Shown here: piece after piece, positions 5,329 to 47,541 of the stretch
How positions within the stretch are numbered: position 1 is the stretch's first letter
How the letters are laid out: the number at the start of each line of letters is the position of its first letter
Assembly: GCA_903854195.1 (NCBI GenBank)
Contig: CAINVO010000029.1
Coordinates: 2,557 to 66,556 of the forward strand
Length of the DNA stretch: 64,000 nt
DNA from: an uncultured bacterium
GTDB lineage: Bacteria > Patescibacteriota > Minisyncoccia > Phycocordibacterales > CAINVO01
Reading direction: 5' to 3'
The notes under the pieces: generated by a model
The model's database searches: none
What the model was told of the DNA's origin: nothing
The model's input: the letters and a program-made list of their open reading frames with translations, nothing else
Position numbers and translations under genes: made by a program

Positions 5329-6048
5329 ATGATCATTAAAATATTGCTGGAGGATGCCCAAAAAATGGGACTCTTCGAAACATCGCTTATCATTGGGCTA
5401 ACAGTTGCCTACTTTTCAGCTTTATTCATTCAAGCTGAAGAAGTGCGAAAATACTACAAAACATTTCCGCCTTCCCAAACCATCTACCACGCAGGTCTGG
5501 CAAATTTATTTATTTACTTTTGCTTTTACTGCGATTCAATGAAACACCCCGTACTGGCAGTTGCAAGCTTTCTATGTGCCAGCGGTAACGAAACAATCGC
5601 GTTATGGGCATCAAAGATAGGCCCAACTAAAAAAACAATGACTGTCGTTGTGTCGTTCGGACTAGTACCCATCATTGTCATCATGGTTGCAATGATTAGT
5701 AAAATGACGGTTACAGGCGGTCACACAGAAATCCAGATGCTTCTAGCCACGGCCGTCCTTGTGAGTTTAATTGGACTTGCAATTTCCACAGAGATTTGGG
5801 AAAAGAAAAAAGTTGAAGGTTTTGCAAATACTTGTAAAATCTACAAAAGCCACCAAGCAATATGTATTGCAATACTGTTGTTCATTTGGATTCCGCTGTT
5901 CATTGGCGAGCCTATCGATTTCCTTGGATCAAAAAGTCTGATGATTATTTTTCTGAGTGTTGCCACAGCGGCAATTTCCAGAAGAATGTTGCTAACTGAT
6001 TTAAGTCAGCAAATCAACGAAACACAAAATCCCCCTATCACAACTTGA
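5329..6048 (+). CDS. Polytopic membrane protein, unknown function
   Basis: 239 aa, about 6 hydrophobic helices, strong SD (ACAGGAGGAATAACTTATG). Confidence 0.5.
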   Translation: MIIKILLEDAQKMGLFETSLIIGLTVAYFSALFIQAEEVRKYYKTFPPSQTIYHAGLANLFIYFCFYCDSMKHPVLAVASFLCASGNETIALWASKIGPTKKTMTVVVSFGLVPIIVIMVAMISKMTVTGGHTEIQMLLATAVLVSLIGLAISTEIWEKKKVEGFANTCKIYKSHQAICIAILLFIWIPLFIGEPIDFLGSKSLMIIFLSVATAAISRRMLLTDLSQQINETQNPPITT

Positions 6049-13472: not shown

Positions 13473-14111
13473 TTATACAACAGACAGGACCATAACTTCT
13501 CCCTCCTTACCTTCCAAATCTTTTTTCTTAATAGTTAGCTTATCAACCGGTGAAACACTCTCGCCCGCTTCCTTTAAAAAAGTTTTGAGAGCGTCTTTAT
13601 CACTACCACCCTTTTCATCATAGTGCATTGGAATAACGATTTTTGCCTCAAGTTTTACAGCAAGTTTATATGCCTCAGAAGCTGACAATACGCCATTACC
13701 ACCAATTGGCACAAAAAGAATATCAACTGAATCAATACCTTCTAGTGTTTCAGGATTTAAAGTAGTTTTATCAAGAGCTCCCAAAAAACAAATATTTATG
13801 CCGTCGAGCTGAAAAGTATAAACTGTATTAATTAGAGATTTACCGTCGTGTGAAGAAGTTTCTGGAAATCCTTTAATAAAAATTCCCCCGGTTTCATATT
13901 CTCCTGGTGAGGTAACAATGAAAGGACTCTTATCTCCGTAAGTAAAATCTGCTCCGCCATTTGTATCAGGATGATTTATCGTTTGCAAAACTATGTTTGC
14001 ACCGAACTTTGATGTTTTAAAAGCAGAATCCTTTGAAGCAGGATTAGTCACGAGCGTAAGATCGCCAAATTGCAATTTAAATGACTCCAATCCTTGATAT
14101 GTAATAACCAT
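13473..14111 (-). CDS. MBL-fold metallo-hydrolase (UlaG/UPF0173-like)
   Basis: Core begins MVITYQGLESFKLQF..; metallo-beta-lactamase fold pattern. ORF-track N-terminal extension to 14321 runs through an inverted-repeat spacer and is rejected. Confidence 0.7.
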   Translation of the reverse strand: MVITYQGLESFKLQFGDLTLVTNPASKDSAFKTSKFGANIVLQTINHPDTNGGADFTYGDKSPFIVTSPGEYETGGIFIKGFPETSSHDGKSLINTVYTFQLDGINICFLGALDKTTLNPETLEGIDSVDILFVPIGGNGVLSASEAYKLAVKLEAKIVIPMHYDEKGGSDKDALKTFLKEAGESVSPVDKLTIKKKDLEGKEGEVMVLSVV

Positions 14112-14147
14112 AATGGCGACATTGTAGCACAATATTAAATGTGTATA

Positions 14148-14265
14148 AAGTATTACAAATACACCTTTTTGGAGCACGGATAAATCCTTGCTAGGATTTT
14201 CCTCGTGCTCGCTCCGTCGAGTCTCGCAAGTCTCCAAAAAGGTGCATTTGTAATATTTGTAATAC
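14148..14265. repeat. Nested inverted repeats in the MBL-hydrolase / rpsA divergent spacer
   Basis: Arms ttacaaatacacctttttggag and ctccaaaaaggtgcatttgtaa (1 mismatch) enclose inner hairpins gagcacg..cgtgctc and aaatcct-tgct-aggattt. Confidence 0.6.
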
Positions 14266-14390
14266 TTTACCAACCTTAGATGTTGTGCTACATTAGCCCT
14301 ATTATTAATAGTTGTAGCCACAAGTAACCTCGCCCATTGTTACGACAGATTTGCAGGCGAAACTTGTGGCTAGACGCATATACATTATTT

Positions 14391-15551
14391 ATGGCAAAAA
14401 AAATTGACGGTTCTGTAGACGAAAATCTAAAGGACATCGTAAAGGACAACCAAACAACGGCTCAAGAAGAGGCTGAAAAGGAGATACGTTCTAAAAAGGA
14501 TAGCCCGATGGGCAAGCTTCTAAACGAAACTGCAACACCTCCAAGTGTAGCTGATATCGTTGAAGGACCCGTTATCGCTATCGACAAGAAAGGTGTTTTT
14601 GTGGATTTACATCCATATGGAACAGGTATTATTTATGGACGTGAATACATCAACGCTCGTGACATCATCAAGAAAGTAAACATTGGTGACAGTATCGCAG
14701 CTAAAGTTGTTGGATTTGATCACCCAGAAGGATACATTGAACTTTCTCTAAAAGAAGCTAAACAGGCATTGATTTGGAGTGAGGCTGAAATTGCTATTCG
14801 AGACAAGACTGCTTTTGATATTCCTGTTCTTGAAGCAAACAAAGGAGGACTTATTCTTTCATGGCAAGGTATCCAAGGTTTCCTTCCTGCATCACAACTT
14901 AAGACAGAACACTACCCACGCGTAACAGATGGTGATAAGGATAAAATCCTGGAAGAGCTTAAGAAACTTATTGGCAAGCGCATTTCTGTAGTTATCATTT
15001 CTGCCGCTCCAAAAGAAGGAAAACTTATCTTCTCAGAAAAGAACCCTGAACAAAAAGATAAAGAAAAGATGGTTGGAAAATACGCAGTTGCAGATGAAAT
15101 CGAAGGAACAGTTACAGGCATGGTAGATTTCGGAGTATTCGTAAAACTAGAAGAAGGTCTTGAAGGTCTAGTTCACATCTCAGAAATCGACTGGGCACTT
15201 GTAGAAGATCCTCGAGCTATCTTTAAGGTTGGCGATAAAGTAAAAGTAAAAATTATCGAAATCAAGGATGGTAAGATTTCTCTTTCTATCAAGGCTTTGA
15301 AAGAAAACCCATGGAAAGCTGCATCAAAGAAATACAAGAAAGATGATGTTGTAAGTGGTGTTGTTATCAAATTCAACAAACACGGCGCTCTTGCAAGCAT
15401 TGAAGAAGGTGTCGCAGGTCTTGTACATGTTTCAGAGTTTGGAACAGAAGCAAAACTTCGTGAGTCACTAGAGCTTGGTAAAAGCTATAACTTTAAGATC
15501 AATCTCTTTGATCCAAAAGAACAAAAGATGGCGTTAGGTTTTGTGAAGTAG
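14391..15551 (+). CDS. rpsA: 30S ribosomal protein S1 (short, 4 S1 domains)
   Basis: Repeated S1-domain motifs (G.V.G.V....FG.FV.L..G..GL.H.SE); ATG at 14391 gives MAKKIDG. Confidence 0.9.
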   Translation: MAKKIDGSVDENLKDIVKDNQTTAQEEAEKEIRSKKDSPMGKLLNETATPPSVADIVEGPVIAIDKKGVFVDLHPYGTGIIYGREYINARDIIKKVNIGDSIAAKVVGFDHPEGYIELSLKEAKQALIWSEAEIAIRDKTAFDIPVLEANKGGLILSWQGIQGFLPASQLKTEHYPRVTDGDKDKILEELKKLIGKRISVVIISAAPKEGKLIFSEKNPEQKDKEKMVGKYAVADEIEGTVTGMVDFGVFVKLEEGLEGLVHISEIDWALVEDPRAIFKVGDKVKVKIIEIKDGKISLSIKALKENPWKAASKKYKKDDVVSGVVIKFNKHGALASIEEGVAGLVHVSEFGTEAKLRESLELGKSYNFKINLFDPKEQKMALGFVK

Positions 15552-15555
15552 TTAG

Positions 15556-15650
15556 ATAAAATAAAAAAGCCGTTTGCGAAGTCCTTCGCTACCCTGTTTT
15601 AAGTCTTGAGACTTCAGAATAGAGTGCGGGACAAGCGAACGGCTTTTTTA
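15556..15650 (+). terminator. Composite rho-independent terminator after rpsA
   Basis: aaaaaagccgtttgcg ... cgcaaacggcttttttatttt with an inner hairpin gaagtc..gacttc. Confidence 0.65.
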
Positions 15651-15693
15651 TTTTGCCTGCTATTCACGCCCAGCGTGGTTATTTTTAATGGTA

Positions 15694-15721
15694 TTGACAC
15701 CTCAAAATCTTTGTGTAATAC
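15694..15721 (+). promoter_or_regulatory. Sigma70-like promoter upstream of the islet ORF
   Basis: TTGACA - 15/16 nt - TGtGTAATAc. Confidence 0.4.
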
Positions 15722-15749
15722 TTTCGCTCAGAAATTCAGATAAGTTTAT

Positions 15750-16154
15750 ATGCCGAAACAGCAAGTTCAATACGCAATACTGGCAACAATCACAGCAATC
15801 GTCGTTCCTGAGGAAAGCCTCACTAATGGTAACAACCACATTTCTTCGCACCCCAGGCTCCGGATGCTGATCCTGAACCTTGAAGGCAAAGAGCGGAAGA
15901 AAGTGAAGGTGAATATCCGTTATCATTTTGAACAAGACGAGCGTGTCCCCGCAAAGGCACACGTCGCGCTGGTGACCAGCAACCGAGGTCCGATCGACCA
16001 CGAACAAATTCGCACAGCCTTCGGAAGCGATGGAAAAGTGTTCGTCAAGACGTACCAAAACGTATCGACAGATCCGAACGTTTTGAACGATCTTTTTCTG
16101 CTTGCGGATAAGGATTCGCAGGCGACAAGAGATGCGATCCAGAAAGTCGCTTAG
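15750..16154 (+). CDS. Hypothetical protein in a GC-rich (about 50%) islet; no recognisable family
   Basis: 134 aa ORF with non-repetitive composition. The overlapping minus ORF 15702..16160 is Cys-rich and junk-like. Own promoter upstream and a GC hairpin downstream. Confidence 0.35.
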   Translation: MPKQQVQYAILATITAIVVPEESLTNGNNHISSHPRLRMLILNLEGKERKKVKVNIRYHFEQDERVPAKAHVALVTSNRGPIDHEQIRTAFGSDGKVFVKTYQNVSTDPNVLNDLFLLADKDSQATRDAIQKVA

Positions 16155-16263
16155 TATCATTAGCCCTTTTTAAAGCAAGGATGGGCAAAACCAGCCGGAA
16201 CGATTTGAATCGTTCCGGCTGTAACTATTTATAAGCTATTACATATTTAGACAATACCCGAAC

Positions 16264-16887
16264 TTATCCTTGGTTCATTTCATTCATTGCAGCCGCCCTA
16301 CCTTCTTCAATTATCATTTTTAAAGCATCCGCAGCTTTTTTTGAAACTTTCTTAATTTCCTCAGCTTCCACAAGTTTAAAATCACCTATAATAAAATCTA
16401 AGACTTTATCTCCTAATGGTTTTTTCAACTTTCCACCTGGAGTAGTTGGTGAAATACCAATTTTCAAACGAACAAACGCTTCTGTCTTGAGATTTTTTAT
16501 TATTGACTCAACCCCTCGATGACCTCCTGATCCCCTATTAAAAGAAATTTTAAAAGTACCTAGGGCAAGATCCAAATCATCATGAACAACAATAAGCTGT
16601 TCAGCTTTTTTTTCACTCGTTACAAGCGTCTTAACCGATGAACCGGATTTATTCATAAAAGTTTCAGGCATAATAACCACAACCTTTTCTTTATTTTTTT
16701 TACTTGGTTTTTTTAAATCTGCTGCAGACATAACACCTTCAGAAAATAATCCGGCAAATTTTTTACTTGGCACAGCAGCAGGAAAAGCATTTTTTTTGAT
16801 AAAAGCTTCTGCAACCATTCTTCCAATGTTATGGCGCGTATTTTTGTATTCCTCTCCTGGATTACCGAGTCCCGCTATTACAAACAT
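16264..16887 (-). CDS. pth: Peptidyl-tRNA hydrolase
   Basis: N-terminal MFVIAGLGNPG..Y..TRHN(I)G, full-length Pth pattern. Confidence 0.9.
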   Translation of the reverse strand: MFVIAGLGNPGEEYKNTRHNIGRMVAEAFIKKNAFPAAVPSKKFAGLFSEGVMSAADLKKPSKKNKEKVVVIMPETFMNKSGSSVKTLVTSEKKAEQLIVVHDDLDLALGTFKISFNRGSGGHRGVESIIKNLKTEAFVRLKIGISPTTPGGKLKKPLGDKVLDFIIGDFKLVEAEEIKKVSKKAADALKMIIEEGRAAAMNEMNQG

Positions 16888-25900: not shown

Positions 25901-26512
25901 CTACATTTTCTTAACATGAACAGCAAGGAATAGACAAGACGGTTTCCAGCCATCCTCGCCAGTTGAGATTTTGAGACGGTTTTTAAGACCGTCTACCTTC
26001 TCGAAGCATGGGTACCCTGGCAAAACATTATTCATCTTACTCAAGAGAGTATCCCAAAGCCATCTGCAAATAGCCTTAGATTCGTGTTGGAAGTGAATAA
26101 AGCCTTCATTCGAAGACCCGAGGGCAATCAGCGGATCATCCCTAATTATGTTTCCGAATTTCCCCGCAAACACCATTAGTTCCTTTATAAAGGCAGGCCG
26201 AAGACCAGCTTGAGCAAATTCCTTTATAATCTCATCCCTTTTCCACCCAAAGAACTGGGGTCCGAGAGCATCGAATTTTACAACTTCAAAATTGACCGTG
26301 TAAACACCCGTAAGGTAATTTTCAAAAGTCATTGAAGTTATTTCGCTTTCATTTTCGACTGAGCAGTTTGCCTCATCGAGCAAGATACCGAGAGTCTTTC
26401 TCGCGTCAATCTGAATATCCCTGAAATCATTTGTTCCGGGCCAAAACCAGTCTCGACGATTAATCCCCTCCTCGTTATCGCAAAATACAATTCTTGGATC
26501 TATTACTTTCAT
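25901..26512 (-). CDS. Hypothetical protein in a GC-elevated islet
   Basis: 203 aa, no TM helix, no recognisable motifs; local GC about 44% versus about 36% in the flanks. Confidence 0.4.
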   Translation of the reverse strand: MKVIDPRIVFCDNEEGINRRDWFWPGTNDFRDIQIDARKTLGILLDEANCSVENESEITSMTFENYLTGVYTVNFEVVKFDALGPQFFGWKRDEIIKEFAQAGLRPAFIKELMVFAGKFGNIIRDDPLIALGSSNEGFIHFQHESKAICRWLWDTLLSKMNNVLPGYPCFEKVDGLKNRLKISTGEDGWKPSCLFLAVHVKKM

Positions 26513-35577: not shown

Positions 35578-36378
35578 TTATCTTTTAAACATCGACGCTC
35601 TTTGAAACATCTTGAGCGCTTTGATTGGATATTTTTTTGCCATGTGCCAATCAATTGGATCATGTGCATCACCGCTTGGACGAAGCCTCCCTTGGGCATC
35701 AAGACTGATGTCAGGAAACTCCTTTATCAGAGGTTCAGCCAGATACATCGTATCGGGGCCAAGACCTCCGGCGACAGCAATACCAAGATCTGGAAAGTTT
35801 TCTTTGATGGCACGGACGAATGGTATCATCTTGAGACCATTCATACCCAAACCTTTTCCTCCGCTTTTATCCAACAAAACGAAGTCAACAACCTCAGCAT
35901 AATCCTCTAGTCTTTCGACTAGTGCCGCCGGATCATCCCCCACCTGATCAAAGGCATCTCTGCCAACCTGAAGGATGACCTCCAAACGTTTCCTTGATCC
36001 GTGAACTGCGTTTGAGATTTCCGCGGGTTCAGGCCAAATCATATCCAGCTGTAGAGCGTTTACACCCATACCGCCATAGCCTATTGCGCGACAAAGCGTC
36101 TCGGCGAGATTTGGATTATTCTCGTAGTCAGCAAAATGAAGACAATTCATAACCCGAGGAGAATCAGAAGAAAATATTCCAGAAATCTCCTCCTTCTTAG
36201 GAAAAATCGAAGACCACTGTGTCTCCAACCCGTTCAGTGTTTTGTAGCTCATCATCACGCCGACGTGGAGCCTTCGGAACAAACCGAACCTGCGGCTGCT
36301 GTTAAAAACTTCAAGCATTTTCAGTACTTGGTCATACTTCGTAAAATCGGTAATACCGATATATGGAACTTTTGTCAT
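35578..36378 (-). CDS. TIM-barrel protein of the phosphoribosylanthranilate isomerase (TrpF/PRAI) family, GC-elevated
   Basis: N-terminal KVPYIGIT, VDFVLLDKSGGKGLGMNGLKM and IAVAGGLGPDTM match PRAI phosphate-binding motifs; 266 aa; about 50% GC. Confidence 0.5.
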   Translation of the reverse strand: MTKVPYIGITDFTKYDQVLKMLEVFNSSRRFGLFRRLHVGVMMSYKTLNGLETQWSSIFPKKEEISGIFSSDSPRVMNCLHFADYENNPNLAETLCRAIGYGGMGVNALQLDMIWPEPAEISNAVHGSRKRLEVILQVGRDAFDQVGDDPAALVERLEDYAEVVDFVLLDKSGGKGLGMNGLKMIPFVRAIKENFPDLGIAVAGGLGPDTMYLAEPLIKEFPDISLDAQGRLRPSGDAHDPIDWHMAKKYPIKALKMFQRASMFKR

Positions 36379-46953: not shown

Positions 46954-47541
46954 TTAGACTCTCTCTGAGCTTTTTTCGTATTCGTCAGTCTTCCCTTTTA
47001 AAACAAGGAAACAGACCAAAACACAACTCATAACCAATGTGGTTATAATGCCATATGGCAGAAACAGTCCCAGCAGGAGACCAGTAACATAATATGCCGC
47101 GAACGGATCTGTGATGTCAGAATTCTTCCAAATGATGGGCCTGATAAGGCAGACCAATGCTCCAACAAAAATTCCCAAAACAATTTGAGCAAAAATGTTC
47201 CAAGCAACAATCCCCTTGTTCATAACTGAAATCATAAAGATGTCAAAGCCCACCATAATCCCAATTAAGGCGCCGTGTAGCGCATACTCTGAGTTCTTCT
47301 TGATACAGAACGGCTGCACCAAAATCCAAAGAAGAATCCCCGCTGGAATAAATGCCGTCAGGTTCCACAATGGATTTACATCCAAAGGTTTGATGAAGAT
47401 CAAATCCCAGATTTTGATTTGTGGGTTTTGACCAATATGCATCATGTAAACTGGTGGCGATATGGATGCAATGATAACAAGCATGAAGAGAAGGCTCTTC
47501 AGAATGACAAGCTCGTTGCTATTGTTACTTTCCTTTTTCAT
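46954..47541 (-). CDS. Polytopic membrane protein, unknown function
   Basis: 195 aa, about 5 TM helices. Confidence 0.4.
   Translation of the reverse strand: MKKESNNSNELVILKSLLFMLVIIASISPPVYMMHIGQNPQIKIWDLIFIKPLDVNPLWNLTAFIPAGILLWILVQPFCIKKNSEYALHGALIGIMVGFDIFMISVMNKGIVAWNIFAQIVLGIFVGALVCLIRPIIWKNSDITDPFAAYYVTGLLLGLFLPYGIITTLVMSCVLVCFLVLKGKTDEYEKSSERV

Follow-up and report, generated by a model that had tools for sequence, protein, structure and literature searches.

A probably acquired orphan gene in the variable rpsA-pth interval of a Patescibacteria genome

Taxonomically restricted (orphan) genes are abundant in the genomes of Patescibacteria, or candidate phyla radiation (CPR) bacteria. 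Conserved core genes can enclose intervals of variable content, which have been described as hotspots of horizontal gene transfer (HGT; Oliveira et al. 2017, Nat Commun 8:841, PMC5635113). Here, we describe a GC-rich island between the convergent genes rpsA (ribosomal protein S1) and pth (peptidyl-tRNA hydrolase) in a 64-kb chromosome segment of a Patescibacteria (Paceibacteria-like) genome; this whole segment, which has a GC content of 37.2%, is referred to as the window. The island carries a 134-codon open reading frame (ORF), ORF134, which matches only itself in the sequence collections and whose codon usage is foreign to the host. We propose that the island is a one-gene accessory cassette, with an orphan gene that was acquired into the variable rpsA-pth slot, and assign a probability of roughly 0.7 to this statement as a whole. 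Taken separately, ORF134 is very likely to be coding sequence of foreign derivation that occupies a variable slot, and the odds are a little better than even that it is now expressed, from a putative promoter and terminator, and functional. The features on which this proposal is built are the following:

14337-15551, plus strand: rpsA, for ribosomal protein S1 with four S1 domains (Pfam E 3.8e-40); core gene on the left of the island, syntenic in 80 relatives
15750-16154, plus strand: ORF134 (MPKQQVQYAIL...), orphan coding sequence, codon usage foreign to the host; 134 aa, 15.1 kDa, isoelectric point 9.3
15702-16160, minus strand: 152-aa antisense ORF with 10 Cys residues; a shadow ORF and not a gene
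15752-16220, no strand: GC-rich segment, the compositional island proper, from a two-change-point maximum-likelihood fit (gain 14 natural-log units)
16264-16887, minus strand: pth, peptidyl-tRNA hydrolase, the right core-gene flank; Pfam Pept_tRNA_hydro E 1.2e-50

ORF134 bears the marks of a real coding sequence, the signature of which is seen directly. Its 3-base periodicity (chi2 33.6, p 8e-6) lies beyond the highest value of 27.0 reached by 2000 dinucleotide shuffles, and its base composition is near that of host coding sequence both at codon position 1 (A.32, C.26, G.33, T.09) and at codon position 2 (A.37, C.22, G.12, T.29). With the host proteome as reference, the amino-acid log-likelihood ratio amounts to +7.7 bits for ORF134, to 10.9±8.1 bits for host gene segments and to -7.6 bits for the antisense frame. 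The periodicity argues for translation and against a noncoding RNA (ncRNA), and ORF134 has already been gene-called in public records (P0001). The predicted product is a basic 15-kDa protein, probably soluble and rich in beta structure, the N-terminal stretch of which is moderately hydrophobic and stays under the hydropathy typical of a membrane helix. The initial annotation of this DNA had treated long ORFs on both strands as expected by chance, which proved too lenient: when the island was dinucleotide-shuffled 5000 times, ORFs reached 134 aa or more in 1.6% of the shuffles and 152 aa or more in 0.34%. Nor are the two ORFs independent chance events. The Cys-rich antisense ORF is present opposite ORF134, as had been reported, and stands in exact reverse-complement codon register with it; it is open because the sense strand of ORF134 has no TTA, CTA or TCA codons, an absence that has a chance of 6e-4 under host codon usage. 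The antisense ORF is hence a codon-register shadow of ORF134 and a by-product of codon usage rich in GC at third positions (GC3), and both ORFs are one signal and not two.

The base composition of the island departs clearly from its surroundings. The island forms the top 400-nt GC peak of the 64 kb, with a GC content of 46.3% over 15690-16235, for which about 50% had been claimed, of 49.6% over ORF134 and of 53.5% at the peak of local 200-nt windows, while the fitted segment contains 49.3% GC vs 35.9% outside it. The GC-rich block starts at the ATG of ORF134, and the promoter region (15690-15749) is AT-rich and host-like. At the level of codons, the GC3 of ORF134 is 0.567 vs 0.285±0.065 for host genes (59 window ORFs, z = 4.3; pooled host genes 27%), and its synonymous-codon score under host usage is the lowest among all window genes (z = -5.5). 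With such foreign codon usage, ORF134 is unlikely to have arisen de novo out of the surrounding AT-rich DNA, a candidate origin that we rejected on its foreign GC3, or to have resided in this genome for long. The best fit to ORF134 is provided by codon tables, small ones, from relatives of 47-50% GC; the table of relative L041, for instance, scores ORF134 0.071 vs 0.061±0.022 for the genes of L041 itself. The donor therefore need not lie outside the clade and could lie within it, to the extent that such small tables can tell. The foreign codon usage is a direct observation, as are the variability of the slot and the orphan status described below, and it is from these that we infer horizontal acquisition. 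After ORF134, the most atypical codon usage in the window is that of four genes at 5329-6048 (plus strand), 25901-26512, 35578-36378 and 46954-47541 (all minus strand), which match no Pfam or NCBIfam family, have a GC3 of 0.41-0.50 and are each preceded by a strong Shine-Dalgarno sequence. These four may represent a second acquired set, from Shine-Dalgarno-using donors.

The interval in which ORF134 lies is itself variable. The locus was compared in 80 relatives of roughly genus- to family-level divergence, 70 of which have pth inside the fetched locus and are the basis of the rpsA-pth counts; the closest S1 matches are metagenome-assembled genomes labelled Paceibacterota, Taylorbacteria or Zambryskibacteria, with 68-82% amino-acid identity. 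The gene order gyrA (minus), rpsA (plus), pth (minus), lepB (plus), hisZ (plus) and s21 (plus) is conserved among the 80 relatives, and rpsA and pth are convergent neighbours in 69/70. The gap between these two genes nevertheless ranges from 3 to 2707 bp (median 611 bp, interquartile 96-1022 bp), whereas the neighbouring gaps are tight and exceed 300 bp in only 1/65 cases for pth-lepB and 2/59 for lepB-hisZ. Direct adjacency of rpsA and pth in relatives is thus only part of the picture: the genes are less than 170 bp apart in 21 relatives, and gaps of more than 300 bp with varied cargo are found in 47/70. The cargo is mostly unrelated from one genome to the next (of the 100 ORFs with 90 aa or more, 79 are singletons), and its GC content departs from that of the host both upwards and downwards. 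It includes REP-associated tyrosine (Y1) transposases in three genomes, IS630 (three) and IS481 transposases, a DUF559 endonuclease, CYTH/class IV cyclases (two), a NUDIX protein, purC/purE, extracytoplasmic function (ECF) sigma factors and many proteins without a family. In terms of gene turnover, the rpsA-pth interval conforms to the hotspots of Oliveira et al. 2017 (PMC5635113). Acquired cargo, the first of three origins envisaged for the island by the initial annotation (the others being an assembly chimera and a structured ncRNA), is supported by the coding periodicity, the host-like codon positions 1 and 2, the foreign GC3 and synonymous codons, and the variability of the interval among relatives.

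No likeness to ORF134 was detected among the slot cargo of the relatives by tblastn, phmmer or profile comparison; against the two recurrent slot families of relatives, the ORF134 profile reached a probability of 0.25% or less, and the island DNA is without similarity in any relative. Direct repeats at the flanks of the island and inverted repeats at its ends were sought, and none was convincing; neither the island nor its hairpins have dispersed copies within the 64 kb.

Several small elements were seen at this position in relatives. The Y1 transposases, which match the NCBIfam family REP-associated tyrosine transposase, lie in the slot of L061 (5083-5766), L076 (5182-5835) and L078 (5090-5746), all on the minus strand; the three relatives with IS630-family transposases are different ones. 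In L003, a GC-rich module of about 38 nt (CTCGGGCAAGCGCCCCGGAG...) is present in three copies within 1.3 kb (1072-1110, 1580-1617 and 2279-2320): it forms the apices of long hairpins after rpsA and after pth, and the third copy lies upstream of pth. The two hairpin-apex copies are inverted and hence have the same sense relative to each gene. The copies form a family of repeats resembling repetitive extragenic palindromes (REPs). Four further relatives share an element of noncoding appearance, about 170 nt long, right behind the stop codon of rpsA (L030 5061-5230, L021 5145-5311, L028 1299-1466 and L013 5142-5308), which is 83-90% identical across them; the copies of L030 and L013 were scanned and have no Rfam match.

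The lack of a recognisable family, already remarked on in the initial annotation, was borne out by much wider searches. ORF134 matches no Pfam, NCBIfam or PHROG family, and only itself both in a word-indexed search of 5.8 billion clusters and among 1.84 billion representative proteins searched in full with HMMER; no relative was found in JGI metagenome contigs, IMG/VR, phage records or plasmid records, and no PADLOC model of anti-phage defence matched at E <= 0.001. Three marginal candidates were set aside. A match to PADLOC PDLC00746 ('endonuclease effector'; E 0.0038, 14.3 bits, 63 residues) is too weak and has no partner gene, the BAH domain of plant EBS, the best sequence match in the PDB (E 0.85), is noise and is not matched by the Pfam BAH model, and NCBIfam NuoD matches, with E 0.03 or worse, are likewise noise. 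Conspecific genomes were also sought: an exact 22-mer of the rpsA 3' end is unmatched in metagenome contigs, and exact-protein look-ups of Pth and of S1 with three candidate starts returned nothing on record.

The 712 bp between the convergent rpsA and pth hold all elements of the island, in the order 106-nt hairpin, small hairpin, promoter-like site, ORF134, GC-rich hairpin, 42 AT-rich bases and pth stop codon. Together with both ORFs and the GC-rich block, the promoter-like site and the hairpin of the initial annotation were recovered at or near the places where they had been put. The elements around ORF134 are:

15553-15658, no strand: 106-nt hairpin preceded by an A-run and followed by a T-run, a bidirectional structure like an intrinsic terminator that ends rpsA
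15664-15688, plus strand: second small terminator-like hairpin CACGC-CCA-GCGTG, followed by TTATTTTTAA; from terminator scan and fold, directly precedes the -35 box
15694-15722, plus strand: sigma-70-type promoter-like site, TTGACA (15694-15699), 17-nt spacer, TG and AATACT (15717-15722); 10/12 match
16192-16221, no strand: GC-rich hairpin between the convergent ORF134 and pth, with arms CAGCCGGAACGATT / AATCGTTCCGGCTG

From these elements, a simple path of expression can be proposed. A donor with a GC content near 47-50% would have supplied ORF134 by horizontal transfer, and the gene would have been inserted between the convergent rpsA and pth. Read-through from rpsA would be stopped by the 106-nt hairpin, the arms of which (15558-15577 and 15635-15654) are 95% complementary and which folds with a minimum free energy of -57 kcal/mol (z = -8.2), together with the second small terminator. 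Transcription of ORF134 would then begin at the sigma-70-like promoter at 15694-15722, which as a sequence match ends 28 nt before the ATG, with a putative start near 15729, and translation would proceed from a leader of about 20 nt that has no Shine-Dalgarno sequence, as for most genes here. The transcript would end at or near the hairpin at 16192-16221, which would also terminate pth from the opposite side. The 14-nt arms of this hairpin are 100% complementary and fold as 13 bp with a 4-nt loop, slightly longer than the 12 bp originally given, and the hairpin is probably a terminator common to ORF134 and pth; it suits pth better because GUUUUG follows on the minus strand, while the tract on the plus strand, UAACUAUUUAU, is interrupted, and the terminator scan did not call it.

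The near-consensus promoter, to which the initial annotation had given some weight, is indeed present, with a 10/12 match plus the TG, and is not unusual for this genome: there are 28 sites of at least 10/12 in the window, and a 2-kb scan found 3 vs 3.9 expected, so that the match alone is unremarkable. The impression that the island looks foreign to this AT-rich genome thus holds for its composition and not for the style of its promoter and terminator, since sites of that score are this frequent and GC-rich hairpins with A/T-run flanks are common as native terminators. Similarly, the missing Shine-Dalgarno sequence of ORF134 is no obstacle to its translation, because absence is the norm here and only 6/54 window genes have one. 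Many window genes have a TATAAT-like box that ends 7-12 nt before the ATG, which suggests that leaderless or very short-leader mRNAs are widespread in this genome. Long (80-110 nt) and very stable hairpins with A/T-rich outer stems also follow rpsA in L003 (1044-1140) and, at about 150 nt after the gene, in L011, L016, L033 and L048; their apical sequences are not conserved between the window and the relatives, and they may represent either bidirectional terminators of extended length or small palindromes that have been inserted.

A number of points weigh against the proposal of an acquired and functional gene. At the locus in the window there is no integrase, transposase, tRNA, attachment (att) site or flanking direct repeat that would mark an insertion, and the U-tracts of the 16192-16221 hairpin are weak on either strand. 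Expression of ORF134 is deduced from sequence. No homologs were found in any collection searched, and purifying selection is thus not demonstrable. An AlphaFold2 single-sequence model is uninformative (mean predicted local distance difference test score, pLDDT, 36.9), a low score that is expected without an alignment and is not evidence against a fold. Moreover, the nearest sequenced relatives are only 65% (Pth) and 82% (S1) identical; the lineage is poorly sampled, so that the orphan status is partly a sampling effect and the recency of the acquisition is not datable.

The alternative that survives best, though we consider it unlikely, accepts foreign DNA and denies it a role: the segment would be a remnant, a recent gene piece with an intact frame that is neither expressed nor useful and is set to decay. 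ORF134 has neither homologs nor detectable selection, it lacks a Shine-Dalgarno sequence, the slot turns over fast in relatives, and the GC-rich block begins exactly at the ATG, as is possible for a captured fragment. However, ORF134 is complete from ATG to stop codon and takes up almost all of the GC-rich block, it has a suitably spaced promoter-like site upstream and a hairpin downstream, intact ORFs of this length appear in just 1.6% of the shuffles, and the missing Shine-Dalgarno sequence is normal in this genome.

A native origin has a good deal less in its favour. ORF134 could be a fast-evolving, lineage-specific gene, the composition of which marks a special class of host genes and not a transfer; the four no-family genes mentioned above likewise combine raised GC3 with atypical codons, and in a lineage without a close sequenced relative a native fast-evolving gene would look orphan too. 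Yet ORF134 is far more extreme than these four, with a codon score of -0.34 vs -0.08 to -0.02, and differs from them in having no Shine-Dalgarno sequence. Nothing similar to it occurs at the rpsA-pth position in any relative, and the two flanking genes are directly adjacent in the 21 relatives noted above. We regard this explanation as quite improbable.

At the opposite end, the proposal could be taken further, with ORF134 as the functional founder of a new family on a small hairpin-bounded cassette that targets the rpsA-pth terminator region, the slot being a dedicated landing site. This is a long shot; if it were true, the slot cargo could carry, for example, strain-specific host-interaction or anti-phage functions.

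That the island is an assembly chimera of wrongly joined foreign reads, the second origin envisaged, is very improbable. The compositional jump at the island would be in keeping with such an artefact, and so would the start of a contig from a second assembly, L001 (ENA ERZ27229609 k141_225046, 1176 bp), at 15684, 6 nt before the -35 box, as a result of which the left junction rests on one assembly. L001 is nevertheless 100% identical to 15684-16840 and therewith crosses the right junction, and at the other end it runs into Illumina adapter, as low-coverage contigs typically do; both flanks lie in one conserved rpsA-pth synteny block, so that two precise false joins would be needed, and no repeat common to the island and the rest of the window is there to seed a misjoin. 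The adapter sequence at the far end of L001 (AGATCGGAAGAGC...) is a sign of untrimmed reads, and its start at the island edge may reflect poor coverage beside the very stable 106-nt hairpin.

We give similarly little credence to the third origin, a structured ncRNA with its own promoter and terminator in which both ORFs would be incidental. The promoter-like site and the terminal hairpin enclose about 490 nt, and the folding z-score of -2.4 may at first seem suggestive; the value is equal on both strands of the 462-nt putative transcript (-2.40 plus, -2.37 minus), which points to ordinary local palindromes and not to a strand-specific RNA. In addition, the Rfam scan came back empty, with no match to the gathering score and only noise at E <= 10, and the strong 3-base periodicity and protein-like, position-specific composition are unexpected for an ncRNA. 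Finally, the idea that the Cys-rich minus-strand ORF is the real gene, for which only its greater length speaks, can practically be dismissed, as it is open only through the three missing codons in its exact register with ORF134, has an unfavourable amino-acid ratio (-7.6 bits), 10 Cys residues and a position-1 composition that is not gene-like, would run head-on out of the pth terminator without a promoter, is missing from the gene calls of the protein collection, has neither a database entry nor a homolog, and is matched by no Pfam, NCBIfam or PHROG family.

Variation at this locus extends beyond the rpsA-pth interval. A gene for a metallo-beta-lactamase-fold protein (Lactamase_B_3) occupies 13473-14321 on the minus strand, between gyrA and rpsA, and was detected in the gyrA-rpsA interval of none of the 80 relatives; that interval exceeds 780 bp in every relative, and its content is therefore variable there too. 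Between this gene and the divergent rpsA, a long imperfect inverted repeat at 14110-14305 folds into an approximately 175-nt hairpin (z = -8.3 over 14100-14400), which could be an insertion like a miniature inverted-repeat transposable element (MITE) or a regulatory structure upstream of rpsA. The true start of rpsA is probably the ATG at 14391 or at 14508. Elsewhere, the T4SS_pilin family is matched by five ORFs of the whole window (best E 2.6e-10); T4SS_pilin proteins are typical of CPR bacteria.

As it stands, the finding is a routine one, namely one more orphan accessory gene in a CPR genome, in a hotspot of a type already described for bacteria. Of modest value beyond this, the convergent rpsA-pth interval is used again and again as a variable slot by a broad range of Paceibacteria-like genomes and could be a handy marker locus for gene flux in these reduced genomes. 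The case also illustrates how a real foreign coding sequence can be told from an antisense shadow ORF when homologs are lacking, and, if functional, ORF134 would define a new small protein family.

Compared with known systems, the island combines several familiar traits. The antisense ORF resembles the shadow ORFs opposite GC3-rich genes in every point, including the register and the lack of TTA, CTA and TCA codons in the sense gene. Like other orphan genes of Patescibacteria, ORF134 is small and without homolog or family, but its third-position composition and codon usage are foreign to the host. The perfect GC-rich hairpin between the 3' ends of ORF134 and pth recalls the bidirectional intrinsic terminators of convergent genes, and similar hairpins occur elsewhere in the host, although the U-tracts here are short or interrupted and the hairpin was not called by the scan. 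With REPs and their associated tyrosine transposases (RAYTs), and with elements of the IS200/IS605 type, the locus shares hairpins near both island edges (15664-15678 and 16192-16221), Y1 transposases in the slot of L061, L076 and L078, and a REP-like module that flanks the slot in L003. In contrast to such elements, there is no Y1_Tnp protein at the locus in the window, and the edge hairpins are single-copy within the 64 kb and have no sequence similarity to the elements of the relatives. A further counterpart is the HGT hotspot (PMC5635113). The insert in the window differs from this pattern in that it is a single 0.5-kb gene without integrase, tRNA or att site, and the relatives compared have S1 proteins that are 68-82% identical and are not strains of one species, so that rates of gain and loss are not estimable. 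The likeness lies in the syntenic core flanks, in a content that varies while the neighbouring intervals remain tight, in the transposases of some relatives and in the atypical composition of the cargo. Hence, ordinary genome turnover most likely accounts for the island, which, as an orphan gene acquired at a hotspot, would be of a known kind and not a novel type of element.

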